Origin: Gammaproteobacteria bacterium
GTDB lineage: Bacteria > Pseudomonadota > Gammaproteobacteria > Steroidobacterales > Foliamicaceae
DNA: 64,000 nt
Assembly: GCA_026708965.1 (NCBI GenBank)
Contig: JAPOTY010000021.1
Span: 80,182 to 144,181, forward strand
Direction of reading: 5' to 3'
Below the pieces are notes generated by a model, which was given only the letters and a program-made list of their open reading frames with translations, ran no database searches and was not told the DNA's origin. The position numbers and the translations under genes were made by a program. Numbering within the stretch: the stretch's first letter is position 1; each line of letters starts with the position of its first letter. Of this stretch, positions 13,076 through 28,812 are shown one piece after another.

Positions 13076-14590
13076 ATGCCCGAACCTGCTCCGCGCTGCG
13101 AACGCCGAAGTCGGCGCCTGCGGCTTGCGGTCGGACTGTTCATCAGCTTAGCCGTTTGCGGACCGCTGGGCTCCGAGGATGAGCCGGACGACGAGCCGCC
13201 GGCGATCGATATCGCGGAAACGCGGGCTGAAGGGCCGTTTGTAGGTATGGAGCTGCGGGAGACGGGGGTTCTCGCTTGGGAGGCGGAGTCGGTCGAGGTG
13301 CCCCGGTCGAAGCGATCGTCGGCTCGCTCGGAACTGACCCCGGCAGAGGTGATCGATCACCCGGATTGCGGCATGCGGATTGGCGCGGGGGCCGCCTTCG
13401 GCTTGGCGATGGTCGTTGTGCCTGATGCCATCGGCGCGCGGTTCTCGGTGCTGAACGAAGACGGCGCGGTGCAATCCGGCGATCTGCCTTTTGCGCCCTA
13501 TTGCTACATGATGGGGAAGCGGTCGGACGGCTCGATCGTGGCGGGCTTCGGTCGCTTGGCGCCCGAGCATGGCGTCAACCAAGGCCGTGAAAACCCCGGC
13601 CCGTTGCGAATCTATCTGGATGGCCAGCTGATCGACGCGCGCGAAGGCATCCGGGATTTCGGCGTGGCCAACGACGGTTCCTCGTATTGGCTGGTCGAGC
13701 CGCTGGGGGAGGGAAGCTCGCGCTTGGCAGTCCGCAATCTGGACGAGGGAACGGAAAGGCACCACGACCTAGGCGACAAGCACGAGCTGCACGGCTTCGA
13801 CATGCTCTACGGCACGTCGTACACGCCGAACGGCAACGAATTGCACGTGGCGCCAGTGAATGACAATGAGTCGGGCGAGGGTGTGCATTATTTCTTCCCT
13901 GTGAGCGGCGGCGGCCAAGCGCGGAAATTGAGGGTGGAGGGAATAGATCCTTGGGACAGAGCCTATATTGTTTCGTCCACGGAAGGGTATTTCTTCTTCA
14001 CGGGCGATGAGTCCGAACCGGGCTTCCGGGTGGAAAAACGCCGGTTCGATTGGGCCACGGGGGAAATCTCCGCGGTATGGGGGCTGGAGGGCGCCAGCGG
14101 GGTCACGCCTTCCCCGATCCAAGCCACCCCGGACGGGGCGTGGCTGTTATTTGAAACCCACCCGGCGCATTCCCGCCCAGGCGACCGTTCCTCGCCAAGA
14201 AGCGATTGGGCGCTGTATGTGCTTGATGCATCCACAGGAGAGCCGGCATTCGCGCTTCCCACAGTGGATGAGCAAGCGCAGTTGGCGCGCCTTCAAAGCG
14301 TGCTTGGGTCTGGCGCGGATATTGAAGACATGGGCTATTTCAATCGTGCGCGCATCGATAGCGGACTCAACCAGTTGATTATCGACCGCCGATTTGAAAC
14401 GGACGGGGAGCCGGATTACGACCGGCGGGCGCTCGACGTGTACGACTTGGACACGATCGCCGTCCATGCCCAGCCCGACTTTCGGTTGCCGTCCAACCGC
14501 TGGATATTGAATCCTTGCGCTTCGGCAGCCTATCCCGGCCAGCTGCTGGCGCTCGAAAACGGCAGGCTGGCCTACGCTCCTGCGCGCTAA
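13076..14590 (+). CDS. hypothetical lipoprotein (beta-rich, possibly propeller-like)
   Basis: ORF 13007..14590 trimmed to Met24. RRSRRLRLAVGLFISLAVC is an n-region plus lipobox. Repeated D-G-S/W-containing segments. No family recognised. The first roughly 16 codons are antisense to a trpA-derived repeat (see findings). Confidence 0.7.
   Translation: MPEPAPRCERRSRRLRLAVGLFISLAVCGPLGSEDEPDDEPPAIDIAETRAEGPFVGMELRETGVLAWEAESVEVPRSKRSSARSELTPAEVIDHPDCGMRIGAGAAFGLAMVVVPDAIGARFSVLNEDGAVQSGDLPFAPYCYMMGKRSDGSIVAGFGRLAPEHGVNQGRENPGPLRIYLDGQLIDAREGIRDFGVANDGSSYWLVEPLGEGSSRLAVRNLDEGTERHHDLGDKHELHGFDMLYGTSYTPNGNELHVAPVNDNESGEGVHYFFPVSGGGQARKLRVEGIDPWDRAYIVSSTEGYFFFTGDESEPGFRVEKRRFDWATGEISAVWGLEGASGVTPSPIQATPDGAWLLFETHPAHSRPGDRSSPRSDWALYVLDASTGEPAFALPTVDEQAQLARLQSVLGSGADIEDMGYFNRARIDSGLNQLIIDRRFETDGEPDYDRRALDVYDLDTIAVHAQPDFRLPSNRWILNPCASAAYPGQLLALENGRLAYAPAR
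13084..13123. repeat. direct repeat copy A (relic of trpA 3' coding sequence)
   Basis: acctgctccgcgctgcgaacgccgaagtcggcgcctgcgg matches 14723..14762 at 35 of 40 positions in the same orientation. Confidence 0.85.
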
Positions 14591-14613: not shown

Positions 14614-15384
14614 TCAGTCGCGCAATTGGCGGAGGAAAGCGCCTGCGTCTTCGCCGCGCTCTAGGCAGTCCACGACCGCCGAGCCGACTATCACGCCGTC
14701 GGCCACGCCGCTTAAGGCGCGCACTTGCTGCGCGCTGCGAACGCCGAAGCCGGCGCATACGGGCAGGCCGGAATACTCGCTGACCTTTTGCATGTAGCCG
14801 GTCATTTCCGCCGACACCTCGCGTTCTCCGCCGGTCACGCCGGTGGCGGTGACGGCGTACACGAATCCGCCGCTGGCTTGGCACAGCGCGCGCAAACGGT
14901 CGTCGGGCGTGGCCGGCGTCACCATTTGCACCAGCGCCGCGCCGTGCTTCTGCAAAGGGGCGCGCGCCGCCGCGCATTCCTCCCAAGGCAGATCCGGCAC
15001 GATCAGGCCCGCCACGCCGCATTCGCCGCAGCGCGTCGCCAGCGATTCGAGCCCGTAGGCCAGCAGCGGGTTGTAGTAGCTCATCAGCACCAGCGGCACG
15101 CCCGGATCGCCATGCGCCTGAAGCTCGTCGAGTATCCAGTTCAACGAAACCCTGTTCGCCAGCGCCGTTTCGCTGGCCCGCTGTATCGTCACGCCGTCGG
15201 CCATCGGATCGGAGAACGGCACGCCGATCTCCACCGCGTCGCCCGCCGCCGCCAGCATGTCCAGAATCGCGTGGAAGTCCTCCCGCCTCGGGTGCCCGGC
15301 CGTGAAGAACGGCAACAGCGCCGGCTGCCGCGCGTTCAGGATGGCGCTGCGAAGCCGCTCCGCGCCGGTGCTCGATTTGCTCAC
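14614..15384 (-). CDS. trpA: tryptophan synthase alpha chain
   Basis: ORF 14614..15489. FFTAGHP, EIGVPFSDPMADGVTIQ, LMSYYNP, GFVY.V...GVTG, CAGFGV. Start placed at GTG 15384 (VSKSSTGAERLRSAI...), giving a typical 256 aa. The upstream 35 codons look like a relic rather than TrpA. Confidence 0.88.
   Translation of the reverse strand: MSKSSTGAERLRSAILNARQPALLPFFTAGHPRREDFHAILDMLAAAGDAVEIGVPFSDPMADGVTIQRASETALANRVSLNWILDELQAHGDPGVPLVLMSYYNPLLAYGLESLATRCGECGVAGLIVPDLPWEECAAARAPLQKHGAALVQMVTPATPDDRLRALCQASGGFVYAVTATGVTGGEREVSAEMTGYMQKVSEYSGLPVCAGFGVRSAQQVRALSGVADGVIVGSAVVDCLERGEDAGAFLRQLRD
14723..14762. repeat. direct repeat copy B (inside intact trpA, codons for CAGFGVRSAQQV)
   Basis: acttgctgcgcgctgcgaacgccgaagccggcgcatacgg. 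This is the partner of 13084..13123. Confidence 0.85.
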
Positions 15385-15688
15385 AAGCGTACATTGTGGA
15401 GCAGCACCGCCGCATCTGGCAATGCCAAGGATACGCCCCAAGGCATCGGCGCGCCTCTGGCCCGCGCCTGCAAGCGGCGTTTCGCCCACCTCCGGCGCCC
15501 GCTGGTTCTTATCTCCCGCTATCTCTAATCCTTGATAGTAGGATTTCCTTCATATGGGTGAAAAGTTGATCAAAGGCGTTATCAGGGCCGCTTTTTGACC
15601 TCGGCCTACGATTGGCCCGACCGAGTTAGTTGCTATTTATTTCTATATTAGCTAAATTGTCAACTGATGGAGAAGGGAGAATAAAATA

Positions 15689-16768
15689 ATGATAGGACAG
15701 AGGCTTAGGATATCAAGGCTGGCTTCCGGGCTTTCTCTTCGTGGTTTGGAAGCCAAGATTGACAACCGTGTTACGGCTCAGGCGATCAGCAAGTACGAGC
15801 GCAACGAGTCAATGCCGAGTTCGGGTGTGCTCATTGCGCTCGCCGATGCGCTGGATGTGGCCGTGGATTATCTGGCTGGCGATGCGAGCATGGTTCTGGA
15901 AGCCGTGGATTTCCGCAAGAAAAGGTTTACGGGTAGGCGTGAACAAGCGCGCATCGAAGCCAGTGTGCTGCATCTGCTTGAGCGCTACCTCACGGTCGAG
16001 GAGATTCTGGGCCTGCCAAGCGTTGCCTGGGACAAGCCGAGGGAGGCGCCCTGGCCCGTGGTGCGCGATTTGTCTGAGGCGGAGCAAGGCGCGCTTGGAC
16101 TTCGCATTCACTGGGGGCTTGGCCTCGATCCTATTCCAAACTTGGTCGAACCTCTGGAAGAAAGGGGGATCAAGGTATTGGCAATGGACCTTCCCGCTAT
16201 CGACGGCCTGACCGCGCGCGTACGCCGGGACAAGGGGAAGCCCGCCTCTGTAATTGTCGTAAACCAAGGAGATTGGGGCGAGCGCCAGAGATTTACGGCG
16301 GCGCACGAGCTAGGCCACATGGTTCTGGATGTTGCTCCCAAGCTGAACAATGAAAAGGCCGCGCACCGCTTTGCCGGCGCCTTCCTCATGTCGGCGGAAA
16401 CGCTGCGCGCCGCAATCGGCAAGCACCGCAAGTCCATGGGCTGGGGCGAGCTGTTCGAGTTGAAACGGGTGTTCGGCGTTAGCGTGCAGGCGCTCACGTA
16501 TCGCTGCAAGGACCTCGGCATTTTCAGCAACCGCTTGTTCCGGTCGCTGTTCGACGAGTTTGCCCGCCGCGGCTGGCGCCGCCCGCCGTACGAGGAGCCT
16601 TATGCAATGCAAGGCGAAAAGCCCGGACGGTTCGAGCGGCTGTGCTACCGCGCCTTGGTGGAGGGGGCGGTGTCCGATGCCAAAGCCGCCGAGCTGCTCG
16701 GCATTTCGGTTCGCGAGTTGAACCAGCGCGTGGAGGAGCCCCCTCGTTTCGAGCCGCTAGCCGCCTGA
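15689..16768 (+). CDS. XRE-family HTH fused to ImmA/IrrE (M78) zinc metallopeptidase domain
   Basis: 359 aa. N-terminal HTH (LSLRGLEAKI..RVTAQAISKYERNESMPS), HEXXH site AAHELGHMV. AT-rich upstream region with agggaga SD. Confidence 0.85.
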   Translation: MIGQRLRISRLASGLSLRGLEAKIDNRVTAQAISKYERNESMPSSGVLIALADALDVAVDYLAGDASMVLEAVDFRKKRFTGRREQARIEASVLHLLERYLTVEEILGLPSVAWDKPREAPWPVVRDLSEAEQGALGLRIHWGLGLDPIPNLVEPLEERGIKVLAMDLPAIDGLTARVRRDKGKPASVIVVNQGDWGERQRFTAAHELGHMVLDVAPKLNNEKAAHRFAGAFLMSAETLRAAIGKHRKSMGWGELFELKRVFGVSVQALTYRCKDLGIFSNRLFRSLFDEFARRGWRRPPYEEPYAMQGEKPGRFERLCYRALVEGAVSDAKAAELLGISVRELNQRVEEPPRFEPLAA

Positions 16769-16774
16769 CCACGG

Positions 16775-16984
16775 ATGCCGGGCGACGGAGAAATGCGTGA
16801 GCTGGCCCGATCAGAAGCAGTTGCCTGCCATGGCGTTCTATGGCTGATTGACAAAATGTTCGAGCATGGCCTCGTATCTGCCGCCCAGCTCTGTTTCTCC
16901 ATCCAAGCAATTGCGTCACATCCCCGCTGCCGGTTGCCGAAGAATGAAGTCAGAAAAAGGATTCGGCTCTACTGTGGCGGCTGA
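16775..16984 (+). CDS. 69-aa ORF, possibly the C-terminal remnant of a PIN-like (DUF3368-type) protein
   Basis: Lies in the same reading frame as the upstream gene, 2 codons after its TGA. The segment ACHGVLWLIDKMFEHGLVSAAQL...RLPKNEV resembles the C-terminal helix pattern of DUF3368/PIN proteins. The N-terminal catalytic half is absent. Confidence 0.35.
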   Translation: MPGDGEMRELARSEAVACHGVLWLIDKMFEHGLVSAAQLCFSIQAIASHPRCRLPKNEVRKRIRLYCGG

Positions 16985-17069
16985 AAGAACCCGTGCATGA
17001 ATTTGAACAATTGCGATAGGCAAGCTAGAGCTGCACTTGAGGCGCTGGAGTATTCCTGCCCTCTTTCCG

Positions 17070-17103
17070 AGGCCCGTGCGCGAGCACGGGCCTTCGTGTA
17101 TTT
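17070..17103 (+). terminator. Rho-independent terminator-like hairpin
   Basis: aggcccgtgc-GCGA-gcacgggcct is a 10-bp stem with a tetraloop, followed by tcgtgtattt. Confidence 0.5.
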
Positions 17104-17263
17104 AGGAACTTGGTGGTGAGATTGCTTACCTTGACGAGTTCGGACATGTTGGCCCGTATGCTTCCCGAAACGACCCGAGGCATAACGCCAGTCCGGTATA
17201 TTGCTTACCGGGTCGCCCGCGCCGTCGTTTGAGTAAAATCGCGCAAGGACTCGGCGCACGACC

Positions 17264-17488
17264 ATGAGCAACGCTCACCACCTTGGCCTATCGATCCCGT
17301 CGGCGGCTTGGCTGCGCCCTCCGCCCAAGGCGGATGATGCCGCCTTGCATGAAATTCTGGTCGCATTCAATCCAATGATCCTGTGGGAAAGCGAACCAAG
17401 CGCGGCCCTCTTTCTACAAGAACATCCCCAAAAACGACATCGAAATCGAGAAATAGCCACCGAGCATTGCATAATTGACGGACTATGA
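17264..17488 (+). CDS. 74-aa hypothetical ORF, possibly a frameshifted piece of a decayed DUF3800-like gene
   Basis: ATG with no convincing SD. Its stop overlaps the next start (ATGA). See the finding on 17106..17488. Confidence 0.3.
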   Translation: MSNAHHLGLSIPSAAWLRPPPKADDAALHEILVAFNPMILWESEPSAALFLQEHPQKRHRNREIATEHCIIDGL

Positions 17489-17862
17489 AATTCCGCGAGC
17501 AATTGCCGGAAAATTGTCCGCCAGATTCGGCAGTGGAAATTCGAGAGACAATATACGTGTTCCGACTCGTCAGATCGCTGCCGCCTACTGAGTCGGATTT
17601 TCAGTCTCAACGGGCCGAAAATCTGGACCGCTCATTTTCAGGAGTAAGTGAATGCCAAGCCTTCGGCCTATCCGTTTTTCTGCTGCGCAGCGATGCAGAG
17701 AAGAAGCTAAAGTTGCCCAAAATGCGCGGGCGGAAGGTCTGTCGAGTGATGTTGGTTGCCGGAGCAGGCTATATCGATAAGACTGGTCGAGCATCGCATC
17801 ACACATGGTGGCCGCTCGCGAAATACGACATATTGGCCCAATGCAATTGGGAAGCGATATGA
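17485..17862 (+). CDS. hypothetical protein (125 aa), family unknown
   Basis: MKFREQLPENCPPDSAVE...DFQSQRAE...SECQAFGLSVF...GRASHHTWWPLAKYDIL. Overlaps both neighbours by ATGA. No catalytic motif recognised. Confidence 0.65.
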   Translation: MKFREQLPENCPPDSAVEIRETIYVFRLVRSLPPTESDFQSQRAENLDRSFSGVSECQAFGLSVFLLRSDAEKKLKLPKMRGRKVCRVMLVAGAGYIDKTGRASHHTWWPLAKYDILAQCNWEAI

Positions 17863-19001
17863 AGCCCATTCGCTGCACAACCATGCTGGATTACTGCGAC
17901 GGCCCGCTGCTTTTCGAGGCGCGGGATCGCATCGGCGGGCACTATCTGGCAATGACCGTGGAGACAAGCGGAGGAGAGGACGAGTATGCGGTCGTGGGCG
18001 TGGAGCCGGAGCGGCTGCGCCAATTTCGCACGGGGTTGGTGGATTTGAGGCTTCTGTTTGAAGAAGCTGGGGAGCATGAGTGGTTCTTGGCCAAAGCGAC
18101 GGCTTTAGATGAGCCGCTGAATTTGCGCCCGCAGACAAGTGCTTTGTCGCGTAGCGGGCTTTTGCCTGAAGAGGGGTTTGTTCTCCCGTATATGCCGACC
18201 GGCGCATTTGTGCTCAAGGAAGCGAAGGCGCGCAATAATCTCATGCTTGAACTGGTAGTGGAGCCGCCGGAGTCAGCGACTGGCCACCGTGTTCGTGTGG
18301 ACACTTATGCGGGTTTGCTCAATCAAGTGCAAACAATGATGAAGCATGCCTATAGATCGGTGCTAAAAGAGCTTCCCTCTAGCTACCAGCCATCGATCCG
18401 ACCATCGGAAGCGGTGCTGATGGATGTAGTTGTGCCTGCCGCCGCCGGTTCCATGCGTGTGGTTCTCGAAGCCGCTCATCCGCCTGACCTTCTGGGCGGG
18501 AGCGAGGTTGCACTGGCACTGCACCGAGTGGACACGTTTTTTGAGAATGCTGCCAACCCCGACTTAGCGCTCGAGACGGCGAAGCATCATCGGGGGCATC
18601 TCGCCGGAGCTTACTTGCGGCTTCTGAGGTTCTTGGAACATCGGGAGACAGGTCTCAGCTATTCTTGGGCCGAGCCCGCTTCCGAGCAGGCGAATAGCAG
18701 AGCGGTATCGGCATCGGAAGCTGTGGCGCTTGCGCAGGCGCTTGCTAAGGTTACAAGCCTAGGAACCGAGGAGGTTGCATTCGCGGGGGAATTCATGAAA
18801 GTCAACCGTGACACCAGAGCATGGGGATTGGATACAGGGACACGTATCGAGACAGGCAAAGTCATTGACGATGGCCCGAGCCTCAATGGGCTTACGGTAG
18901 GCAGCCGGTACAAGTTCTTCTGCGTGGAAAAAATCGAAGCTGTCGAAGGCACGGGAAGGGAAACTCGGTGCCTTTATTTGCAAAAGTTTGAACGCGAATA
19001 G
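17859..19001 (+). CDS. hypothetical protein (380 aa), family unknown
   Basis: ORF 17805..19001 trimmed to Met19 (ATG 17859, gggaag SD, ATGA overlap with the upstream stop). No Walker, nuclease, HEPN, PIN, TIR or SIR2 motif seen. Confidence 0.7.
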   Translation: MKPIRCTTMLDYCDGPLLFEARDRIGGHYLAMTVETSGGEDEYAVVGVEPERLRQFRTGLVDLRLLFEEAGEHEWFLAKATALDEPLNLRPQTSALSRSGLLPEEGFVLPYMPTGAFVLKEAKARNNLMLELVVEPPESATGHRVRVDTYAGLLNQVQTMMKHAYRSVLKELPSSYQPSIRPSEAVLMDVVVPAAAGSMRVVLEAAHPPDLLGGSEVALALHRVDTFFENAANPDLALETAKHHRGHLAGAYLRLLRFLEHRETGLSYSWAEPASEQANSRAVSASEAVALAQALAKVTSLGTEEVAFAGEFMKVNRDTRAWGLDTGTRIETGKVIDDGPSLNGLTVGSRYKFFCVEKIEAVEGTGRETRCLYLQKFERE

Positions 19002-19173
19002 ATTGTCCGGCCTTTCATAATGGACGGATGATGGCGGTACAAGGGAATCCCGCATAAAACGGCTCGGATCGCAAGGGAACGGCTAGTGTCTATGCTGGCT
19101 GTGCGAGATAGCAAGATATCATTGTGTCTTACCCGGGCCGTCTCCGATCACAGCACCAATACGGACCGGTAGT

Positions 19174-20266
19174 GTCAATAATCTTTCGCACTTTCGCTTT
19201 AGCGGTGGTCCCGGTCCCTCCTTCAGGCTGCTGCGCAGGCGGCTTCCTTGTCCATCTCCGCGAGCAACCCGACATTCATGTATTTCCGCAATCCCCACTG
19301 GGTGGCCGACACGTGCCTTAGCCTTGCGGCGACGAGCATCAGCGCCGATTGGCCGTCCGGGAAGGCGCCGACCACTTTGGTTCGCCGGCGCGCCTCGCGC
19401 AGCAAGCGTTCCATCGGATTATTGGTCTTCAGCTTGATCCAGTGCTGCGAGGGGAACGAGCAGTAGGCCAGCGTCTCCTCGATCGCGTTTTCCACGAGCT
19501 CCGCCGCCGCGGCCAGCTTCATCGCCTTAAGCTTCCCGATCACGTCCCGGGCTTTGACCAGCGCGGCCGAACGGCTCTCCCGGGCGTGGATCGCCTTGGG
19601 CATGGCGGCCGCCTGGCGCACTTTCCTGCGCGGCACATGAGAGAACACGTTGCGGTGGAAATGCGCCACGCAGCGCTGCCAGCCGGCCTTGTCCTCCTTG
19701 CAGCCTTCGGCAACGCCCAGGACACGGCGGTGGCCCTGCGCGTCAACCCCGATCGCCGCCAGGACCGGGACGTTCTTGATCTCCCCGCCCCAGCTGCGCT
19801 TGAGCGCCAACCCGTCCAGATAAACATACGCGCACTCGCCTGGTTGCGCCAGCGCTCGATGTGCCCGTACATCTTGCGGTTGAGGTTGGACGCCGTGCCG
19901 GAAGACACCCGTGTGCCCCATGGGGCTTCGGCGGCGTCCTCCACCCGACGAACCGACACGCCCGCCAAGTACATCTGAACGATCGCCTCCTCGACCGGGA
20001 TGTCCCGGCGCCGATAGCGCTCGATGACCGCCGTCTCGAACGTCCGGCTACGCAGCTTCGGCACCTTCAACTCGTACTTCCCCGGCCTGCGTACGCAGCT
20101 TGCGCGAGCAGTGCCCCGCACGCGTGTCGATCCGAATCACCTTGCCCAATGCCTTCGTGCTATCTTGCTCCATGGTGGTCTCCTCATGGTCCGGTGGTTG
20201 TCGTCAAACAACCTTTCTGCCAGACCGAGACCACCGCCTCTGAAAAATGTGCGAAAAATAATTTAC
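19174..20266 (-). mobile_element. IS256-family insertion sequence remnant (about 1.09 kb) with recognisable terminal inverted repeats
   Basis: Ends gtcaataatctttcgcac...gcggtggtcccggtc (19174 onward) and the reverse complement of 20266 backward, gtaaattatttttcgcac...gcggtggtctcggtc, align as imperfect TIRs. No target-site duplication seen. Confidence 0.6.
19223..20173 (-). pseudogene. IS256-family (mutator-type) transposase, disrupted
   Basis: Two overlapping frames. 19540..20121 reads ELKVPKLR...MYLAGVSVRRVED. 19223..19921 reads YVYLDGLALK...LAAIGVDAQGHRRVLG...WQRCVAHFHRN...NNPMERLLREARRRTKVVGAFP. There is at least one frameshift near 19860-19920. The roughly 40 aa normally between KAGW and QRC are missing, and the N-terminus is shortened. 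Confidence 0.8.
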
Positions 20267-20631
20267 GTTATCCATGTTTCGGTGGGCATAGGTGGCCCTG
20301 GCGCTTTATGCGTTTCCTCTTTTACGCTGAAAGCTTCCCACTCGCCGTTACTCTCTCGCCTATAGATAGTGTCCCAAAACCAAGGGCCAGAATGATGCTT
20401 CGTGGGGTCATGTTGGAACGGGGGCACGATGGTTTGTATTGATTGGACTTCCGGGGCGATCCGCTCGAAGAGTTTGGTGCATCCTGTCATGTCGCAATAG
20501 CCCCTATTCCAGATCAGACCGGTTTGGTGCTCGAATGAGTAGCACAGTGCGGAGACAAAGCAATGAAGGTCGGGGTGTGGTTTTTTGTTTATCACGGTCT
20601 CTCGCCAAGTCTTATGAGCAGGCCCAAACAA
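20263..20631 (-). CDS. hypothetical 122-aa ORF (doubtful)
   Basis: TTG start only, with the first ATG at codon 48. Low GC. Lies between the hsdS stop and the IS remnant. No family recognised. Confidence 0.3.
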   Translation of the reverse strand: MFGPAHKTWRETVINKKPHPDLHCFVSALCYSFEHQTGLIWNRGYCDMTGCTKLFERIAPEVQSIQTIVPPFQHDPTKHHSGPWFWDTIYRRESNGEWEAFSVKEETHKAPGPPMPTETWIT

Positions 20632-20679
20632 CAGTATAAGCCTAGAGAAATTGTTCTGGGTACTGCTTAAGTTCTTGCT

Positions 20680-22257
20680 CTATAGGGCTGTAAGTAACGC
20701 TGACGCAAGAAAGCTAGCACGGCTGGAATTGATGGTTATGAGGCCAGATTCGATTTCGTCGCACAACGCCATCAATCCATCAACTTTGGTGACAATGCGG
20801 TGTTGCTCGGTGAGCGGTGGTATGGATATGCGTTCATTGTAGACATCCGATCGGCTAAGCCCAGGTTTCACGCCCTTGGCCAAGTAGTCCAAATTGAGCG
20901 CAGACAGAGATATATAGAGAAAACGAAGGCTCAAAAAATCTGGTACTTCTATGTAGTACGCGACATCAGTAGTCCATGACGGGCCGTTGCATATGTTGAG
21001 CGCCCCGGCTGATCCCTTGCGGCCCACAATAACGCATGACTGCTTTGTCAGTGGTTCGGTGGTATAGCCGACAATTCCATTGGAGCCGTAAACAGGTACC
21101 GGGCCGTCTCGTTTGCGTTGATTTGCTGTCAGTCCCTTGCCGTACCGGAAGTCAAGAATCTCGCCCAAGTTGCGGCTGCACCAGTTGACTGGGCGACTAA
21201 AGTCGCCGCCTTCGCCCTGCAAATTTGATCTGGGAAGACTTGCTGGCTTTTCACGATCCGGTCTCTGCGCCACAAGCTTGCCGCGGACGGCTAGGTTGAG
21301 GATGGTTTGGCGGAGATTTTTGATCTGGTCGGCGCGAGTTGTTAGGGCGGGCAGGGATTCGATGGCGAAGCGGGCGTGGGAGCGGAAAGTTGCTATGTTC
21401 GCGTTGGGTTCGCTCAGGCGGGCGAGGGTGGTTTTGGTCAGTTGGGCACGGGCTTCTTTGCGCTCCATGCGACCTTCTTCCAATCGGTCGCAGAGCGCCA
21501 TCAGTTCATCAACTTTGGCGGCGATTCGCTGCTGTTCGGCTAGCGGAGGCAAGGCAACTGGGATTTGGTCCATCCTGTATTTTGGCAAACCACCACGACC
21601 GGCACCGGTTTGCTCGTCAAGGATGAATGCTTGGAAGTACGGGGACAGGATCACATAGTGCAGGAACTTGCACAGTCCATTGATAGCAATACGGATTATC
21701 GAGACATGCTGGCTAATGTTTGCTTGGCCCAAGCTGTCTGGAACCAAACAGCAGCGGCCAATAGACCCGCCCGTGATATTCAGTAGGAGGTCTGATGATC
21801 TAACGGCTGTTCCAGACATCCGTTTGTGAGTTGCTGGATCAATATAAGCAACGTCGGTCAACCGTAATCCATCGTTGTGAATATTCTGGGAGCGCAGGAA
21901 CACTATTCCGTTGTCCGTGTACGCTTTCTTGCCGCCCCTCGGTGTGCTTCCCGAGCCTGTCTTGGAACAAATTTCACCTATCGTCGTTTTTGCCCAGCTC
22001 GCAGGGAGTTTGAACGGAAGTTGGTGCGCCGAATCAGAGTGTGTGCTGGAAGCTCTCGATACTCTTCCTTTGCCCTTCAGCCCAGCCCTCTTCGTGGCAA
22101 TCCGCTCAAGCAGTGTCCATCCTGGTTCGTCGTTTGGGTCCTGCTTCACCAGTCGTCCCCTGATAGCGAGATCAAGCATGAGACGGCGCAGGCGGTGAAC
22201 GCCATCAGGCGAGTCGGATAGATGGTCAAAATGAGCGAGCAGACGTTCCGCGTTCAT
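20680..22257 (-). CDS. hsdS: Type I restriction-modification specificity subunit HsdS
   Basis: 525 aa. Two variable target-recognition regions are separated and followed by conserved helices LPPLAEQQRIAAKVDELMALCDRLE and IPPLTEQHRIVTKVDGLMALCDEIE. Confidence 0.92.
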   Translation of the reverse strand: MNAERLLAHFDHLSDSPDGVHRLRRLMLDLAIRGRLVKQDPNDEPGWTLLERIATKRAGLKGKGRVSRASSTHSDSAHQLPFKLPASWAKTTIGEICSKTGSGSTPRGGKKAYTDNGIVFLRSQNIHNDGLRLTDVAYIDPATHKRMSGTAVRSSDLLLNITGGSIGRCCLVPDSLGQANISQHVSIIRIAINGLCKFLHYVILSPYFQAFILDEQTGAGRGGLPKYRMDQIPVALPPLAEQQRIAAKVDELMALCDRLEEGRMERKEARAQLTKTTLARLSEPNANIATFRSHARFAIESLPALTTRADQIKNLRQTILNLAVRGKLVAQRPDREKPASLPRSNLQGEGGDFSRPVNWCSRNLGEILDFRYGKGLTANQRKRDGPVPVYGSNGIVGYTTEPLTKQSCVIVGRKGSAGALNICNGPSWTTDVAYYIEVPDFLSLRFLYISLSALNLDYLAKGVKPGLSRSDVYNERISIPPLTEQHRIVTKVDGLMALCDEIESGLITINSSRASFLASALLTAL

Positions 22258-22610
22258 TCCTCCGGCGGTCCCAACTCCGAAAGTAGCATACGCACGATTG
22301 AGCCCAGTTCCGGAAGCTTATTCTGGGCGAAAAGCCAAACACGTTCAGATTCGACTACAGCGTAGCCATGGATGAGTAGGTTGCGGAAATCGACAGCCTT
22401 GCGCCACCGCGGTATCCGTTCGGCGATTTCGGGGCTGATTTGATGCAGGCGGTTCAGAGCCTCGCCAATGATTTCGAATTTGCGCTCGACGGCCGCTTGT
22501 GTTTGATCATCGCGGCTGTAGGCATGGCTGTTCATGCCCGCAATGTAGCGGCTGATGTCAGCCGCCGCCGATTCGATATCCGATAGTAGGGCGCGGGGGT
22601 CAGGCCGCAT
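22254..22610 (-). CDS. hepT: HEPN-domain (DUF86) toxin HepT
   Basis: 118 aa. RX4HXY motif RNLLIHGY. Overlaps the hsdS start by 4 nt and the mntA stop by 11 nt. Confidence 0.85.
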   Translation of the reverse strand: MRPDPRALLSDIESAAADISRYIAGMNSHAYSRDDQTQAAVERKFEIIGEALNRLHQISPEIAERIPRWRKAVDFRNLLIHGYAVVESERVWLFAQNKLPELGSIVRMLLSELGPPEE

Positions 22611-22911
22611 AGATGAGCTGGCGCGACTTGTTTATAGCCGCTTGCAAGTACGGATTTCTTACCGCACCCGATTCGACCAGATCGACCGGGCGACCCAATG
22701 TCTGGCGCAATGCTTCGGCGAAGTCGAAGTATTGTTCGAGCGGGGCTTGTCCATTGATGCGCCTGAACTTCACTAGGAAATCAGCATCGCTGTTTTCCGG
22801 GTCGAAATCTGCGGCACGCGCTGCCGAGCCGAAAATCTCGAGCCGCGCCACATCGTGGCTCCGGCACAGTTCAGCCAGTTTTTCGCGCTTTTCAGCGATT
22901 TCAGGATGCAT
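22600..22911 (-). CDS. mntA: minimal nucleotidyltransferase antitoxin MntA
   Basis: ORF 22600..22944 trimmed to Met12. Motifs RLEIFGSAAR and SDADFLV (GS...DxD). Confidence 0.85.
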   Translation of the reverse strand: MHPEIAEKREKLAELCRSHDVARLEIFGSAARAADFDPENSDADFLVKFRRINGQAPLEQYFDFAEALRQTLGRPVDLVESGAVRNPYLQAAINKSRQLIYAA

Positions 22912-22953
22912 CACTGATCCTCCTGCTACGGACGAAACGACCAATCCCGGCTA

Positions 22954-24405
22954 TTATCGTAGCAGCGCCTCCGCTAGGGCGTTCTTCAGCTGGTCGCGCA
23001 CGGCGCGCACTTCGGACTCGGCGCGGTTCAGTTCCGCCAGCAGTTTTTCGGGGTTGCCGACGTACTCCGCCTCCGTGTGCGGATTCTTGATGTCGAGGTT
23101 GTAGCCGCGTTTCCGCACGGCCTCGGCGCTCACCTTCCAGGCGCGCTCGCCTTCCTCGCGGCTTGCGCGCTCCGCGCCGCCCCACCAAGCCGCGCAATCC
23201 GCCAAGTGCTCCAAGCGGATGGGGCGGGTTTTCGAGTAGTGCTTCTGCCCCTCGGGCACCCGGTGCTCCCAGAACCACACTTCCCTGGTCGGCTCGCCTT
23301 TCTCGAAGAACAGCAGGTTGGTGCCGATGGAGGCGTAGGGCTTGAAGACGGAATTGGGCAGGCGCACGATGGTGTGCAGGTTGCATTCCTGCATCAGGCT
23401 TTCCTTCAGCCGCGCCTTCACGTCTTCGCCGAACAGCGAGCCGTCCGGCAGCACCACGGCGGCGCGCCCGCCGGCTTTAAGCAGCCGGATAATCAGGGCG
23501 AGGAACAGGTCCGCTGTTTCGCGGGTGCGGAAACGCTGCGGGAAGTTGGATTCGATGCCGTCCTCCTCCTTGCCGCCGAAAGGCGGATTGGTGAGCACGA
23601 TATCGACCCGCTCGCTCCTGCCCCAGGAGGTGTAGGGGCGCGCCAGCGTGTTGTCGTGGCGCAGGAACGACGGAGCCTCCACGTTGTGCAGCAGCATGTT
23701 GGTAACGGCCAGCATGTGCGGAAGCGGCTTCTTCTCCACCGCCCGCAGCGATGCCTGCATGGCGGCCTCGTCCTCGGGGCGCTTCACGTAGCGCTCGCGC
23801 ATGTGGCGCATGGCGCAGGTGAGGAAGCCGCCGGTGCCGCAGGCCGGGTCGAGCAGGGTTTCGCCGGGCTTGGGATCGATCATTTGCGTCATAAACGAGG
23901 TGACGGCGCGCGGCGTGTAGTACTCGCCGGCGTTGCCGGCCGATTGCAGGTCGTTCAAGACTTGCTCGTAGATATCGCCGAAGTGCTGGCGCTCGGCCAG
24001 GTTGTTGAAGTCGATGCCGTTGATCTTGTTGACCACCTGCCGCATCAGCTGGCCGGACTTCATGTAGTTGTAGGCATCCTCGAACACGTCACGCACCACG
24101 TTGGCGCGCGCGCCGGCGGCGGGCGGGAGCTTCTTGAGCGCCGGGAAGAGGTCGCCGTTGACGAAGCTCAGCAATGCCTCGCCGGTCATGCCTTCCGGGT
24201 TGGCGGCCCAATGGCGCCATTGCAGGCGCGCCGGGACGGGCGAGCGGTAGCCGTCCTTGAGCAGCTCGAGCTCCTGATCCTGGTCGTCGATGATCTTGAG
24301 GAAGAACATCCAGCACAACTGGCTGATGCGCTGCGCGTCGCCATCCACGCCCACATCCTTGCGCATGATGTCCTGAATGGACTTGACCAGCGCGCTAACG
24401 GCCAT
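22954..24405 (-). CDS. hsdM: Type I restriction-modification methyltransferase HsdM (N6-adenine)
   Basis: 483 aa. GEYYTPR, motif I DPACGTGGFL, motif IV NPPFG. Confidence 0.95.
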   Translation of the reverse strand: MAVSALVKSIQDIMRKDVGVDGDAQRISQLCWMFFLKIIDDQDQELELLKDGYRSPVPARLQWRHWAANPEGMTGEALLSFVNGDLFPALKKLPPAAGARANVVRDVFEDAYNYMKSGQLMRQVVNKINGIDFNNLAERQHFGDIYEQVLNDLQSAGNAGEYYTPRAVTSFMTQMIDPKPGETLLDPACGTGGFLTCAMRHMRERYVKRPEDEAAMQASLRAVEKKPLPHMLAVTNMLLHNVEAPSFLRHDNTLARPYTSWGRSERVDIVLTNPPFGGKEEDGIESNFPQRFRTRETADLFLALIIRLLKAGGRAAVVLPDGSLFGEDVKARLKESLMQECNLHTIVRLPNSVFKPYASIGTNLLFFEKGEPTREVWFWEHRVPEGQKHYSKTRPIRLEHLADCAAWWGGAERASREEGERAWKVSAEAVRKRGYNLDIKNPHTEAEYVGNPEKLLAELNRAESEVRAVRDQLKNALAEALLR

Positions 24406-24408
24406 TGG

Positions 24409-26874
24409 CTAGGCGGATTCCCGGTAGAGCGCGGACTGAAGGTCGTGGACGGCGCGCTCGAAGCCGCTCCTGCCGCCGAAGGCGCGCACCAGCTCCACCG
24501 GCGTGCCCAGCCGGTCGATGGGCGGGATTCTGAGCACGTTGGCATCGTCGAGATTGAACACGCCCTCGTCGGCGTACTTGTCGAGCAGCGCGGCGAGCAC
24601 GGCGCGGGCTTTCTCCCCGTGCTTTGCGAAAACGTTGCGCTTTTTCACGTTCTCGGCCCGCTCGCGGCGGGTGAGCGGCTTGGCGTCGAAGGCCACATGG
24701 CAAATAAGATCGAAGGGATCGAGTTTTCGGCCCAGTTCCTCCACCAGCACGTTCAGTTGCAGCCCTTCGGTCTCCATCTCGTCGATGATCGCCTGCTTGC
24801 GCTCGGCCGCGTTCCAGCGCCTCAGGAAATCGTCGAGGCTGGCGAAGCGGCGGCGCAGCGCCTTGCGGGTGAAGTCGCGCAGCGATTCGGTGACGAGCTT
24901 GCCATGCTCGTCGAGATATTCCACCCGCTCGGCGACGATCCTGGCGCTAATGCCATCCACGTAGATCTTTTTGATCGCCCCGCCGCCGCCGGGCTGCTCC
25001 GTGAGGAGGCCGGCCGCCGTCTCGTCGCCGCTGTCGATGCCGCCCCGCGAATCATCCCCGCTGGCCGCCGGCTCCTCGGTGTCGGGCGGATCCATGGGGT
25101 CGCCTTCCTTCGGCTCGTAGATCTGCGCCGGCTCGCCGTCGAACTCGGGATCGGCGAAATGGCTGGTTGCGCCGCGAAAGTCGATGAGCGTGAAATAGAG
25201 CTTGCCGGTATCCTCATGCACCCGGCTGCCGCGGCCCACGATTTGCTTGAATTCGGTCATCGAGCCGACATTGCGGTCCAGCACGATCAGCCGGCAGGTT
25301 TGCACGTCCACGCCGGTGGAAAGCAGGCGCGAAGTGGTGACCAGCACGGGGTATTTCGACTCCGGGTCGATAAAGCTGTCGAGCTGGGCCTGCCCCTCGG
25401 CGTCGCCGCCGGTAATTCGCATCACGTAGCGCGGGTTCCGGCCAACGAGGTCGGCGTTCTCGTTGATCAAAGCCTGTCGCATCCGCGCGGCATGCTCTTG
25501 ATCGACGCAGAAGACGATGGCCTTCTGGAACCGGTCGCCGCTTTCCTTGAGGAAGGCGGTGATTTTCTCCGCAACGATTTTGGTGCGCCCGTCGATCACC
25601 AGCGCCCGGTCGAAATCCTTAAAGTTGTAGATGCGGTCCTCCACCTCCTCGCCCTCGCGGTCCAGCTGGCCGCGCTCCGGTCGGTAGCCCTCCACGTCGC
25701 GGTCGATATGCGCCTTGATGACCTTGTAGGGCGCGAGGAAGCCGTCGCTAATGCCTTGCTTGAGCGAATAGGAGAAGACCGGCTCGCCGAAATAGGCGAT
25801 ATTGGACACGTATTGCGTTTCCTTCGGCGTGGCGGTGAGGCCGATTTGGGTGGCGGCGGAGAAGTATTCGAGAATTTCGCGCCAAGCGGAATCGTCCGCC
25901 GCGCTGCCCCGGTGGCACTCGTCGATCACGATCAGGTCGAAGAAGCCCGGCGAGAGCTCGCGGTAGATTTTCTGGGATTCCTCCGGCCCGGTAATGGCTT
26001 GGTAGAGGCCGAGATAGATTTCGTAGGCGGTATCGATGCGGCGGGCGCCGCTGCCGCGCCGCATGGCGTGGGGCATGTCGATCAAACGGGCGCCGCCGTC
26101 GCGCCGGATGGTATTGGAGCGCGTGGACAGCTTGGCCATCGCGCCGCCGAACGGGCGAAAATCGTTCACGATCGTTTGGTCCACCAGCACGTTGCGGTCG
26201 GCGAGGAACAGGATGCGCTTCTTGCGGCCCGCCTTCCAAAGCCGCCAGATAATCTGGAAGGCGGTGTAGGTTTTGCCCGTTCCGGTGGCCATCACCAGCA
26301 GGATGCGGCTCCGGCCCTTGGCGATGGCTTCGACGGCGGCGTTGATCGCGCTGGCTTGGTAATAGCGCGGCGTTTTGCCGCCGCTGTCGGCGTGGTAGTC
26401 CTGAAGAAAAACGCTCTCGGCCTCCGGCTCCAAGCCTTTCCATTGCCGGTAGCGCGCCCAAAGCGCTGCGGGAGAGGGAAACGCGTCAAGCGGCAGATCG
26501 GCCTCGCGCGGCGCGCTGGCGCCGGTGCGGTCGTGCAACACGAAAGCGTCTCCGTTGGAGGAGAATGCGAACGGGACGCCCAGCGCCTCGGCGTAGTCCA
26601 GCGCCTGCTGCATGCCGTCGCCAACCCCGTGCGAGTTGTCCTTCGCCTCGATCACCGTGATGGGAATATTCGGCTTGCAGTAGAGGATGTAGTCGGCGCG
26701 CTTCGCCTTGCCGCGAGCCACCAGCTTGCCCCGCACGATGACGCGGCCCTTGGTGAACGTCACCTCTTCGCGAATCTGCGCCATTTCGTCCCACCCGGCT
26801 TGGCGCAGGGCGGGCGTGATGAACTTGGTGCAAATATCGCGTTCGGAAAGGCCGCGCTTGTCGATCACGGCCAA
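24409..26874 (-). CDS. hsdR: Type I restriction enzyme endonuclease/translocase subunit HsdR
   Basis: 821 aa, TTG start. N-terminus ...ERDICTKFITPAL..AGW, helicase motifs MATGTGKT and VIDECHRGS. Confidence 0.93.
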   Translation of the reverse strand: MAVIDKRGLSERDICTKFITPALRQAGWDEMAQIREEVTFTKGRVIVRGKLVARGKAKRADYILYCKPNIPITVIEAKDNSHGVGDGMQQALDYAEALGVPFAFSSNGDAFVLHDRTGASAPREADLPLDAFPSPAALWARYRQWKGLEPEAESVFLQDYHADSGGKTPRYYQASAINAAVEAIAKGRSRILLVMATGTGKTYTAFQIIWRLWKAGRKKRILFLADRNVLVDQTIVNDFRPFGGAMAKLSTRSNTIRRDGGARLIDMPHAMRRGSGARRIDTAYEIYLGLYQAITGPEESQKIYRELSPGFFDLIVIDECHRGSAADDSAWREILEYFSAATQIGLTATPKETQYVSNIAYFGEPVFSYSLKQGISDGFLAPYKVIKAHIDRDVEGYRPERGQLDREGEEVEDRIYNFKDFDRALVIDGRTKIVAEKITAFLKESGDRFQKAIVFCVDQEHAARMRQALINENADLVGRNPRYVMRITGGDAEGQAQLDSFIDPESKYPVLVTTSRLLSTGVDVQTCRLIVLDRNVGSMTEFKQIVGRGSRVHEDTGKLYFTLIDFRGATSHFADPEFDGEPAQIYEPKEGDPMDPPDTEEPAASGDDSRGGIDSGDETAAGLLTEQPGGGGAIKKIYVDGISARIVAERVEYLDEHGKLVTESLRDFTRKALRRRFASLDDFLRRWNAAERKQAIIDEMETEGLQLNVLVEELGRKLDPFDLICHVAFDAKPLTRRERAENVKKRNVFAKHGEKARAVLAALLDKYADEGVFNLDDANVLRIPPIDRLGTPVELVRAFGGRSGFERAVHDLQSALYRESA

Positions 26875-26980
26875 TTCCCCGGTCTCGCGCTCAGGGCCAT
26901 AAGGTGTTGCGTATTCTTGTTGTCCCCCGGCAGGCAGCTTACCAGAGCTATTTTGCGGCGGCGGCAGGCTAGAGCGGCGC

Positions 26981-28207
26981 TTAGGTGAGGTGGCGGGTGA
27001 GGGTGGGCATGTCCTTGTCGCCGCGGCCGGATAGGCCGATAAGGATGCGTTTGCCGGGGTTTTGGCGCGCCCATTGGCGGGCGGCGAATAGGGCGTGGGC
27101 GGGCTCCAGCGCCGGCAGGATGCCTTCTAAGCGGCAGCATTCCGCCAGCGCTTCGAGGGCCTGATCGTCGCTGGCTGAGAGGTATTCGACCCGGCCTATC
27201 GCCTGCAATAGCGCGTGCTCCGGCCCCACGCCCGGATAATCGAGGCCGGCGGAAATCGAGGCGGTCTCCACGATTTGGCCGTCGTCGTCGTAGAGCAGCA
27301 TCGAGTAGCTGCCGTGCAGCACCCCCGGCTTGCCGGCGCCCAGCGATGCCGCGTTCTGGCCCTCGCCCGGTCCCGTGCCGCCGGCCTCCACGCCGAAAAT
27401 AGCCACCGCTTCGTCGCCTAAAAAGGCGTGGAACAGGCCGATGGCGTTCGACCCGCCGCCCACGCAGGCGAAAACGGCATCCGGCAGCCCGCCGGCGGCC
27501 TCGGCGAACTGTTCGCGCGCCTCTTCGCCGATCACCTTCTGCAACTCCCGGACCAGCCAGGGATAGGGATGCGGGCCCACCGCCGACCCCAGCAGGTAGT
27601 AAACGCCTTCCGGATCCGAAACCCAGGCGCGGAAGGCTTCGTCGGTGGCCGCGCGGAGGGTGCGGTCGCCCTTATCGACAGCCACGACCTCGGCCCCGAG
27701 CTGGCGCATGCGCTGCACGTTCGGCGCCTGCCGCTCCATATCCAGCGCGCCCATGTACACCGTGCAGGGCAAGCCTGCGCGGGCGCAGGCCGCCGCCGAG
27801 GCCACCCCGTGCTGTCCGGCGCCGGTTTCCGCCACCACGCGGCTCGCGCCCAAGCGCAGCGCCAAGTGCGCCTGGCCCAGCGCGTTATTGATCTTGTGGG
27901 CGCCGGTATGGGCCAGATCCTCGCGCTTGATCCATACCTCGGCGCCCCAGGCCCGCTCCAGGCCGAGCGCGCTGGTGAGCGGCGTGGGGCGTCCGATCCA
28001 TGCCCGCCGTTCCTCGTTCAGCGCGCGGCAAGCATCGTTGTTGGCAAAGAATTCCCGCGCCTTGCGTTCCAGCCGCGACAGCGCCGGCATCAGCGTTTCG
28101 GGGGCGAAGCGGCCGCCGAAGGGGCCGAAGCGGCCATCGCCGTCCGGCAAATCGCCGTTCAGCAGCGCGGCCAGCAGCGCGCGGGCTTCGGATTCGGGCA
28201 TGTTCAT
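26981..28207 (-). CDS. trpB: tryptophan synthase beta chain
   Basis: 408 aa. DLAHTGAHKINN (PLP lysine), GGGSNAIG, GLDYPGVGPEH. Confidence 0.95.
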   Translation of the reverse strand: MNMPESEARALLAALLNGDLPDGDGRFGPFGGRFAPETLMPALSRLERKAREFFANNDACRALNEERRAWIGRPTPLTSALGLERAWGAEVWIKREDLAHTGAHKINNALGQAHLALRLGASRVVAETGAGQHGVASAAACARAGLPCTVYMGALDMERQAPNVQRMRQLGAEVVAVDKGDRTLRAATDEAFRAWVSDPEGVYYLLGSAVGPHPYPWLVRELQKVIGEEAREQFAEAAGGLPDAVFACVGGGSNAIGLFHAFLGDEAVAIFGVEAGGTGPGEGQNAASLGAGKPGVLHGSYSMLLYDDDGQIVETASISAGLDYPGVGPEHALLQAIGRVEYLSASDDQALEALAECCRLEGILPALEPAHALFAARQWARQNPGKRILIGLSGRGDKDMPTLTRHLT

Positions 28208-28812
28208 CGCTGCATGGCCGCTTGGCGGGCCGCCCGCACGAATTCGCTCATGGCCGCCGCGTCCTTAACGCCGGGCGCGCTTTCGACGCCCGAGGCCACA
28301 TCCACGCCCCATGGCCGCACCTGGCGCACGGCTTCAGCAACGTTGTCGGGACCCAAGCCACCCGCCAGCACCATCTCGTTGCGCCGCGCAAGCCGGGCGG
28401 CGCGCTTCCAGTCGGGCCGCTGCCCGATGCCGCTGCGGGCGCCTTCAAACAGGCAGCGCGTTGCTGCGGGAACCGATTCGGGATTGAACTGTTCATGGTC
28501 TCTGTACACGGGCAACGTCCGCAGCGCCGAGGGGAGCGATAGCCGCGCCAAGCTATCGGCATCGGCTTGAAGGCAATCCGGCTTGAATTCGGCCAAAACC
28601 TGCTCCCACTCCTTCTGGACGGGGCGCAGCATAACCGCAACGCGCAGAATCCGCTGCGGCGCCGCGCCCGCAAGCTGGGCCGCCTGCTCCGGCATCAGGC
28701 ACCGCGGCGAGGGCGGAAAGAAGTTGAAGCCGATGGCGTCGGCCCCCGCCGATACGGCGGCCTCAACGGCCTTAACGGTTTTAACGCCGCAGATCTTCAC
28801 GAACAGGCTCAT
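28204..28812 (-). CDS. trpF: phosphoribosylanthranilate isomerase
   Basis: ORF 28204..29052 trimmed to Met81 (MSLFVKICGV...). ATGA overlaps with the trpC stop and the trpB start. Confidence 0.85.
   Translation of the reverse strand: MSLFVKICGVKTVKAVEAAVSAGADAIGFNFFPPSPRCLMPEQAAQLAGAAPQRILRVAVMLRPVQKEWEQVLAEFKPDCLQADADSLARLSLPSALRTLPVYRDHEQFNPESVPAATRCLFEGARSGIGQRPDWKRAARLARRNEMVLAGGLGPDNVAEAVRQVRPWGVDVASGVESAPGVKDAAAMSEFVRAARQAAMQR

Follow-up and report, generated by a model that had tools for sequence, protein, structure and literature searches.

We analysed a 64,000-nucleotide stretch (hereafter the window) of contig JAPOTY010000021.1 from a Gammaproteobacteria bacterium of the family Foliamicaceae (GCA_026708965.1). 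In the window, the tryptophan biosynthesis genes trpDCFB end at position 26981 on the minus strand, and trpA begins 11.6 kb further downstream (14614-15384, minus strand). Our analyses make it likely that the trpB-trpA interval of this Foliamicus-like lineage is a recombination-tolerant hotspot between two conserved core genes. We identified at least eight occupancy states of the interval among approximately 20 contigs, with the same core genes on either side. The two trp genes are never adjacent inside the clade, including in relatives that lack the accessory island of the window, and trpA is preceded by a conserved promoter-like element that lies outside the island.

Occupancy and age of the trpB-trpA gap

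Relatives of the window were collected by a TrpA scan of one genome per species and then by protein look-ups for closer ones; L-numbers (L001 and so on) label the related loci and contigs that were compared with it. Loci L001-L003, which stand beside 'Candidatus Foliamicus' (Gammaproteobacteria), encode a TrpA 76-78% identical to that of the window and a TrpB 86-88% identical. In L086-L090, TrpA is 82-85% identical, and L083, L091/L094, L093 and L175-L178 fall in the same 90% TrpA cluster as the window. The closest match in a TrpA scan of metagenome contigs was only 58% identical, and we found no literature under the name 'Foliamicus'.

The trpB and trpA genes are usually neighbours, as the initial annotation stated, and outside the clade this mostly holds: the gap is below 200 nt in 60 of the 68 loci with both genes, and more distant relatives mostly have less than 150 nt. 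Wide out-of-clade gaps of 1.2-4.8 kb occur in Desulfuromonadales, Bacteroidota and one Beijerinckiaceae locus (L035, L039, L058, L054, L080, L073). Seven island-free members of the clade (L001-3, L086, L087, L088 and L090; TrpA 76-85% identical) have a gap of 0.5-2.5 kb. It measures 518-747 nt in six genomes in which a lipoprotein gene is its only occupant (L001-3, L086, L087 and L090) and 2.5 kb in L088, where the lipoprotein gene is joined by an open reading frame (ORF) for an unknown protein of 574 amino acids (aa). The lipoprotein gene is conserved and lies on the opposite strand. Its 122-aa product combines a signal peptide and a lipobox cysteine with a glycine-rich segment, and matches Pfam Gly-zipper families below threshold. 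No copy of this gene or of the spacer DNA of the relatives is present anywhere in the 64-kb window.

Translational coupling of trpB and trpA was therefore found neither in the window, where the gap is 11.6 kb, nor in the relatives, where an opposite-strand gene intervenes. The initial annotation had proposed that the island inserted into a coupled trpB/trpA junction. The junction comparison, fixed beforehand as the test of that claim, contradicts it in all seven island-free relatives. Because these are already split, trpA would have been uncoupled from trpB before any island arrived, and the comparison indicates that the trpB-trpA split predates the island.

A short repeat in the window (41451-41519, 41561-41632 and 32583-32645) is 73-91% similar to an element inserted in the spacer that separates trpB from the lipoprotein gene of L002 (near 9297-9376) and L003 (near 9299-9366), approximately 40-120 nt past the trpB stop. 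This repeat may be a clade-shared element resembling repetitive extragenic palindromes (REP) or miniature inverted-repeat transposable elements (MITE).

The occupancy states of the gap, in which R-M denotes a restriction-modification system, are as follows.

S0: lipoprotein gene only (L001-3, L086, L087, L090)
S1: lipoprotein gene and 574-aa ORF (L088)
S2: trehalase-like glycoside hydrolase, SSF transporter and TonB-dependent receptor, 5.7 kb (L089)
S3: window type (window, L081, L082, L175-177; hsdR of L175 is internally deleted)
S4: type I R-M with an hsdR deletion, truncated mntA, no hepT, new HsdS recognition domains, OLD nuclease and a DUF3800 fragment (L083)
S5: approximately 20.4 kb with a Calx-beta giant protein, hsdR-hsdM-mntA without hepT or hsdS, HipA and an HTH partner, unknown genes, DUF6575 and XRE-M78 (L091/L094)
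S6: AAA_15/AAA_21 ATPase, HTH and DUF6932, PIN pair and BrnA (L093)
S7: RVT_1 reverse transcriptase, RES toxin, P4 cII-like gene and an M78-only peptidase (L178; TrpA 96% identical)

The flanks of these states are constant: wherever a locus extends over both ends of the gap, it has trpDCFB at one and trpA-ubiB at the other. This applies to the window, L081, L001-3, L086-L090, and the pair L091 and L094, which between them span both ends on one contig. The trpA side alone is covered by L083, L093 and L175-178, and the trpB side alone by L082. Defence and toxin-antitoxin cargo across the states comprises type I R-M, MntA-HepT, RmrA-like, OLD nuclease, HipA, PIN, BrnT, RES and reverse transcriptase genes; L088, L089 and parts of L091 and L093 hold non-defence or unknown genes. 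The reverse transcriptase of L178 (RVT_1, 543 aa, 1686-3317) sits beside the RES toxin and the P4 cII-like gene.

Content changes piecemeal among close relatives. L083 is 98.5-99.3% identical to the window except at 17141-22764, where it has an OLD-family nuclease gene (PADLOC Old, E = 5e-54) and the DUF3800 fragment, and at a 490-bp deletion in hsdR. In L094, the DNA that separates the XRE-M78 gene from the trpA promoter-like element has gained a PIN toxin-antitoxin pair (856 nt, at approximately 15551 in window positions) and BrnTA (660 nt, at 15423-15462). L093 and L094 encode an identical TrpA protein and carry different islands; the Calx-beta giant protein occurs in both L091 and L093. 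Where the window and L091 have island segments in common, these are 93.8-95% identical, versus 92.3% for the neighbouring core. Since these segments have diverged about as much as the core, the island is older than the split between the window and L091 and has undergone internal turnover since. We also noted a strong terminator-like hairpin at 17069-17094 (plus strand; 11-bp stem, 8 GC pairs), approximately 300 nt past the XRE-M78 gene and approximately 50 nt before 17141, the breakpoint of window/L083 homology.

Island edges and the trpA promoter-like element

Gene identities were assigned by Pfam profile scans of the window ORFs and by gene calls on the identical contig L081. The features of the trp cluster and the interval are listed from the trpD end.

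29671-30666, minus strand: trpD (Pfam Glycos_transf_3)
28809-29639, minus strand: trpC (Pfam IGPS)
28204-28812, minus strand: trpF (Pfam PRAI)
26981-28207, minus strand: trpB, 408 aa, left core anchor of the likely hotspot (Pfam PALP)
26955-26973: left core/island junction, from alignment with L091 and L092
26869-26954, minus strand: conserved upstream region of the R-M module, approximately 80 nt, aligned in three contexts (window, L091 and L092)
24409-26868, minus strand: hsdR, 819 aa (Pfam HSDR_N, ResIII, Helicase_C and EcoEI_R_C)
22954-24405, minus strand: hsdM, 483 aa (Pfam HsdM_N and N6_Mtase, E = 1e-69)
22600-22911, minus strand: mntA (Pfam Polbeta/NTP_transf_2)
22254-22610, minus strand: hepT (Pfam HepT-like)
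20680-22257, minus strand: hsdS, 525 aa, with two target-recognition domains (Pfam Methylase_S, two stretches)
19223-20121, minus strand: IS256-family transposase pseudogene (Pfam Transposase_mut on two ORFs in different frames)
17859-19001, plus strand: DUF6575-family gene, 380 aa (Pfam DUF6575, barely over the cut-off)
16775-17862, plus strand: orf69 (16775-16984), o17264 (17264-17488) and o17485 (17485-17862), probable gene fragments or non-coding DNA with almost no family matches
15689-16768, plus strand: XRE-HTH and M78/ImmA peptidase gene, 359 aa, RmrA-like (Pfam HTH_3 and Peptidase_M78)
15423-15688: island-side intergenic DNA between the XRE-M78 gene and the trpA promoter-like element, AT-rich at 15530-15688
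15393-15422, minus strand: trpA promoter-like element, TTGCCA-N18-CACAAT, from a consensus scan and conserved in 19 clade loci
14614-15384, minus strand: trpA, 256 aa, GTG start, right core anchor (Pfam Trp_syntA, E = 7e-72)

The Pfam scans bore out all the genes that the initial annotation had named. The tight packing of trpDCFB, its end at 26981 and the distance to trpA can be read directly in the sequence, as can the ATGA overlaps at trpC/trpF and trpF/trpB; a further ATGA overlap joins hepT and hsdS. The trp cluster of the window consists of trpDCFB only, with trpE and trpG outside it, and a CitMHS/TrkA_C transporter gene lies directly upstream, ending 13 nt before trpD (window positions 30666-30680 and 32452).

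The description of the interval as accessory DNA is borne out by its absence from sister species. Homology to the island-free L086 and L087 ends at 26996, which leaves five variable codons up to the trpB stop codon (26981-26983), and resumes at approximately 15422; the final approximately five trpB codons vary within the clade. L091, whose trp genes are 92% identical to those of the window, refines the left edge. Core homology to it reaches 26973, 8 nt past the trpB stop, and homology of the R-M module begins at 26955 in L091 and at 26948 in L092. The right edge coincides with the -35 hexamer of the trpA element at 15422. The island thus extends over approximately 15423-26972, or about 11.5 kb.

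The lower guanine-cytosine (GC) content ascribed to the interval was also found: it is 0.595 over 15423-26980 versus 0.68-0.72 in the trp genes. It is uneven, as GC at third codon positions (GC3) is 0.85-0.89, and hence host-like, in hsdR and hsdM and 0.58-0.63 in mntA, hepT, hsdS and the DUF6575 gene. An assembly chimera was considered and ruled out. Several samples yielded independent contigs (L081, L082, L175, L176 and L177) that carry this arrangement at 99-100% identity, so it is not an assembly artefact.

Between the island and trpA, all 19 of 19 clade loci have the same succession of elements: TTGC[C/G][A/G], 17-19 nt, xAxAAT, 7-8 nt and GTG (8 nt in the window). Hexamers and spacings are kept across these loci and the spacer sequence varies. 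Beyond the -35 hexamer the DNA is unrelated among occupancy states; eight different upstream contexts occur, with neighbours that include the lipoprotein gene, a TonB-receptor gene, the XRE-M78 gene, BrnT and the 574-aa ORF. The GTG start is invariant in the clade, and the listed ORF of L001 begins there. We found no Shine-Dalgarno-like purine run before it, and an Rfam search returned no RNA element except tRNA-Asn, hence neither a trp leader nor a T-box close to trpA or trpD. The short distance from the end of the -10 hexamer to the GTG (7-8 nt) and the lack of a Shine-Dalgarno sequence suggest a leaderless trpA transcript that starts at or next to the GTG.

The initial annotation further held that trpA must now use a promoter at or inside the island edge. 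This does not stand, since the element lies outside the island and is common to island-free relatives; on this evidence trpA is independent of any island promoter, with the conserved element as its putative promoter. The gene itself appears intact. Over its whole length the protein can be aligned with solved TrpA structures, and its PFSDPMADG stretch, which carries the catalytic Glu and Asp, aligns with PFSDPLADG of the best match, 5ey5.

On the other side of the island, two start candidates for hsdR lie shortly after trpB: TTG at 26874 (106 nt past trpB) and GTG at 26868 (112 nt, preceded by GGGGA). The approximately 80 nt upstream of the gene are also kept at L092, a paralogous locus, and so form part of the R-M module. 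Neither a consensus promoter nor a terminator was detected in 26869-26954, which is likely the module's own control region or 5' untranslated region. This upstream region is conserved in two contexts that lack a co-directional upstream gene: L091, where 5.3 kb of other, opposite-strand genes separate trpB from hsdR (the L091/L094 state), and L092. The stretch from the trpB stop to hsdR has no predicted terminator-like hairpin and no stable structure, so that transcription could run on from trpB into hsdR in the window. Such read-through is not conserved, and would not be required, given the module's own upstream region, the opposite-strand genes before the R-M in L091 and L092, and L093, in which no R-M was seen within 10 kb upstream of trpA.

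Cargo genes and neighbouring variable regions

The hsdR, hsdM and hsdS genes are uninterrupted ORFs with full Pfam domain sets, so the type I R-M system appears intact in the window; a defence activity of this cargo is predicted from its gene families. HsdR belongs to the EcoAI/FtnUII (type IB) family, which is widely exchanged, and its homologues in several phyla are 77-85% identical, some of them named EcoAI/FtnUII by NCBI. The internal hsdR deletion seen in L083 and L175 is absent from the window copy. The hsdS gene has an internal 88-nt repeat (D1). Only its central 279 nt match the L083 allele, which indicates that the recognition domains have been swapped. A paralogous EcoAI-family type I R-M occurs at an unrelated locus of L092 (10001-15597), on the same 2.6-Mb contig as L086. 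It is 85% identical in nucleotides to the hsdR-hsdM of the window and adjoins BrnTA and ParDE pairs and transposases. The R-M family thus changes its location from genome to genome and locus to locus in this clade.

An MntA-HepT pair, overlapping by 11 nt, is embedded between hsdM and hsdS. The MntA translation shows GSAARAADFDPENSDAD (GS...DAD motif) and the HepT translation RNLLIH (Rx4H motif), as is typical of the pair, a minimal nucleotidyltransferase with GSx10DxD beside a HEPN protein with Rx4-6H. In L083, mntA is truncated and hepT absent; hepT is also absent from L091. The IS256 transposase gene, from an insertion sequence (IS), is frameshifted and N-terminally truncated, with Pfam matches to profile positions 72-155 and 247-371 of 379. 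In a six-frame view, the window contains no second IS256 copy.

The XRE-M78 gene, divergent from trpA, is the most stable gene of the island. L083, L091/L094 and L175-177 all carry it, and L178 has an M78-only form. Its product matches 14 PADLOC RmrA models over its full length (best E = 3e-49). RmrA is the antitoxin of RosmerTA systems, but the PADLOC search for the RmrT toxin gave no match in the neighbours 17264-17488, 17485-17862 and DUF6575 (orf69 was covered by Pfam only). As no adjacent RmrT was found, we do not file the locus as a complete RosmerTA system; the XRE-M78 protein may be an orphan regulator or antitoxin.

Relative to L091, the DUF6575 gene has 23 synonymous and 14 non-synonymous codon changes, which argues that it is a real gene under purifying selection. 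The family has a uniform length of approximately 380 aa and occurs in many phyla. A structural model (predicted local distance difference test, pLDDT, 84) gave weak OB-fold matches to solved structures (E approximately 3e-3, about 75-90 aligned columns). The small ORFs at 16775-17862 and an orphan ORF at 20263-20631 are probable gene fragments or non-coding DNA. Pfam gave no match for orf69 or o17485 and only sub-threshold ones for o17264 and the orphan ORF; PADLOC and NCBIfam returned nothing for the ORF at 17264-17488 or the orphan ORF. A weak PD-T4-10_A match of o17485 is the sole family match among the small ORFs. In the comparison of the small downstream ORFs with L091, we saw no purifying selection, o17264 contains indels and orf69 is deleted. 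A resemblance of orf69 to the C-terminus of a PIN-like DUF3368 protein was considered and dropped, as Pfam gave no match.

The slot on the other side of trpA is variable too, and trpA is thus flanked by two variable slots. In the window, the trpA-ubiB slot holds a lineage-specific gene.

13076-14590, plus strand: 502-aa gene in the second variable slot (trpA-ubiB), predicted lipoprotein with a beta-propeller fold

Its product has a signal peptide, an LAVC lipobox and a model (pLDDT 81) with propeller matches. The family is small and uncharacterised (183 representatives at E <= 1e-3), and the gene has no Pfam, PADLOC or NCBIfam match. It is predicted to be a generic beta-propeller lipoprotein gene and not an obvious defence gene. 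The slot is empty in sister species (the 502-aa gene is absent from L086-L090 and L001-3), with an EcoRV-like type II R-M in L089, and holds the 502-aa gene and an M23 peptidase gene in L093.

Elsewhere in the window, a second low-GC (0.51-0.58) defence island occupies 44653-51211, directly after tRNA-Asn (44653-44729). It encodes a SIR2_2 protein (45418-46608) and a HerA/DUF87 ATPase (46605-48365), an IS1595 transposase (48350-49231), and a C5 DNA methylase (49248-50204) with an HNH protein (50201-51211).

Mechanism, alternatives and comparison with known systems

The following history would account for these observations. In the clade ancestor, trpA would already have been uncoupled from trpB, with its own promoter and an opposite-strand lipoprotein gene between the two. 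In the lineage whose TrpA is at least 94% identical to that of the window, accessory DNA would have replaced the lipoprotein gene. The type I R-M at the trpB end and the XRE-M78 (RmrA-like) gene at the trpA end would be the oldest parts of the island. Later turnover would have included swaps of HsdS recognition domains, gain and loss of MntA-HepT, insertion and decay of IS256, exchange of the DUF6575 block for an OLD nuclease, and nested toxin-antitoxin insertions. The trp genes could keep working through these changes because trpA retains its ancestral promoter just outside the island.

We propose that cargo was acquired and exchanged when homologous recombination took place in the core genes at the flanks and in island segments common to the variants, and not by a dedicated integrase. 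Several observations weigh against this account of a recombination-tolerant hotspot. The sample is approximately 20 contigs, mostly metagenome-assembled and from few species, and the polarity of lipoprotein-gene loss is an argument from parsimony made without a species tree. As a bare consensus match, the trpA site is at chance level (3 sites found, 3.4 expected), and the putative promoter and leaderless start are predicted from conservation. Part of the cargo is non-defensive (glycoside hydrolase, transporter and TonB-dependent receptor in L089; Calx-beta giant in L091/L093). Finally, homologous recombination is the most likely mechanism by inference only, and an integrase could have been lost since.

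A more elaborate form of the hotspot account would have TrpA made from its own leaderless GTG transcript without coupling to trpB. The transcriptionally insulated gap that this uncoupling created between two genes that the symbiont must keep would then serve as a stable anchor for the exchange of defence cargo by homologous recombination, with the R-M of the window also fed by trp read-through. In this full combination we consider it unlikely.

Slightly less probable still is a decayed classical mobile element, such as an integrase island, a fragment of an integrative and conjugative element (ICE) or prophage, or an IS256 composite transposon, that entered by site-specific integration. The IS256-type pseudogene within the island, the island GC below core GC, the frequency of XRE-M78 genes (ImmA/ImmR) in mobile elements and the P4 cII-like gene with reverse transcriptase in L178 would fit such an origin. 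However, only a single IS copy is present, and no integrase or recombinase was found among the island ORFs that were scanned with Pfam, PADLOC and NCBIfam or among the called genes of variant loci. The nearby Phage_integrase gene is xerC-like and lies in a dapF-DUF484-xerC-hslVU core block. There is no tRNA at the island edges, the sole tRNA of the window being at 44653, and a search for flanking direct or inverted (att-like) repeats gave short, chance-level matches only. Variants differ piecemeal, with many internal breakpoints, and not as one unit, and the GC3 of hsdR and hsdM is host-like. No single mobile-element family accounts for the locus, which contains only one decayed IS.

We regard as improbable a single insertion that broke a coupled trpB-trpA pair, leaving trpA on an island or edge promoter and the R-M on trp read-through. 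Its appeal lies in the position of the island exactly between trpB and trpA, its absence from sister species, the adjacency of the two genes in most bacteria and the lack of a predicted terminator between trpB and hsdR. The seven island-free clade members, in which an opposite-strand gene already separates the pair, speak against it, as do the trpA element outside the island that these relatives share and the conserved upstream region of the R-M in contexts without a co-directional upstream gene. Least probable of all is a functional placement in which selection keeps immunity or toxin-antitoxin genes coupled to trp transcription: hsdR follows trpB on the same strand after 106-112 nt in which no terminator is predicted, and the island persists in lineages with TrpA 94-100% identical, yet opposite-strand genes precede hsdR in L091/L094, L093 shows no R-M in the 10 kb upstream of trpA, hsdR is internally deleted in L083 and L175, and the heterogeneous cargo fits neutral hotspot turnover.

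A hotspot between core genes corrects an appealing but wrong story in which the island broke the operon and made trpA dependent on it. It also adds a hotspot with precisely mapped edges in an uncultured gammaproteobacterial lineage near Ca. Foliamicus, usable as a landmark for new defence genes such as the DUF6575 family and the unknown genes of L091/L093. The loose end of greatest interest is that trpA, uncoupled from trpB, may be expressed without a leader. A conserved putative promoter with neither leader nor Shine-Dalgarno sequence raises the question of how the stoichiometric balance of the subunits is kept once coupling is lost.

Individual parts of the locus resemble known systems. Like EcoAI/FtnUII type IB R-M systems with MntA-HepT, the R-M of the window has full hsdRMS domain sets and retains the GS..DxD and Rx4H motifs, and its hsdS alleles differ in their recognition domains, as in type I systems generally. 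It differs in that the embedded MntA-HepT pair is dispensable (truncated in L083, without hepT in L091). RosmerTA consists of an RmrT toxin and an RmrA HTH-ImmA/M78 antitoxin, and RmrA pairs with highly variable toxins (PMC10440598). The XRE-M78 protein likewise matches RmrA and adjoins a region that changes between strains, as would be expected of a family that swaps partners; unlike in RosmerTA, none of the neighbouring ORFs searched matches RmrT, and those immediately downstream are fragment-like.

Genes of unknown function between trpB and trpA have been described in some Flavobacterium and Burkholderia and on a Sargasso Sea contig (PMC2395257, after Xie et al. 2003). As far as that source's account of these cases goes, they are alike in that unrelated genes interrupt the pair and both trp genes are seemingly intact. 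They differ in that this account describes no strain variation, whereas in the present clade a small clade-wide insert seems to have been replaced later by a polymorphic multi-gene island.

The closest parallels are cDHS1 and cDHS2 of Pseudomonas aeruginosa (PMC10250203) and the integration hotspots of the E. coli pan-genome (PMC10121019). The present locus differs from these in that both subunit genes of a single enzyme form its borders, that it measures only 0.5 to approximately 20 kb, that some of its states contain no known defence gene, and that it was seen in approximately 20 metagenome-derived contigs of an uncultured lineage and not in thousands of isolates. In all of them, variable immune and accessory genes lie between core genes, size varies widely among close relatives, GC is below that of the core and no single mobilising element is evident. 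For core defence hotspots that lack such an element, recombination in the conserved flanks has been put forward as the route of transfer (PMC10250203). The trpB-trpA interval is a fresh example of this known phenomenon, an accessory and defence hotspot flanked by core genes.

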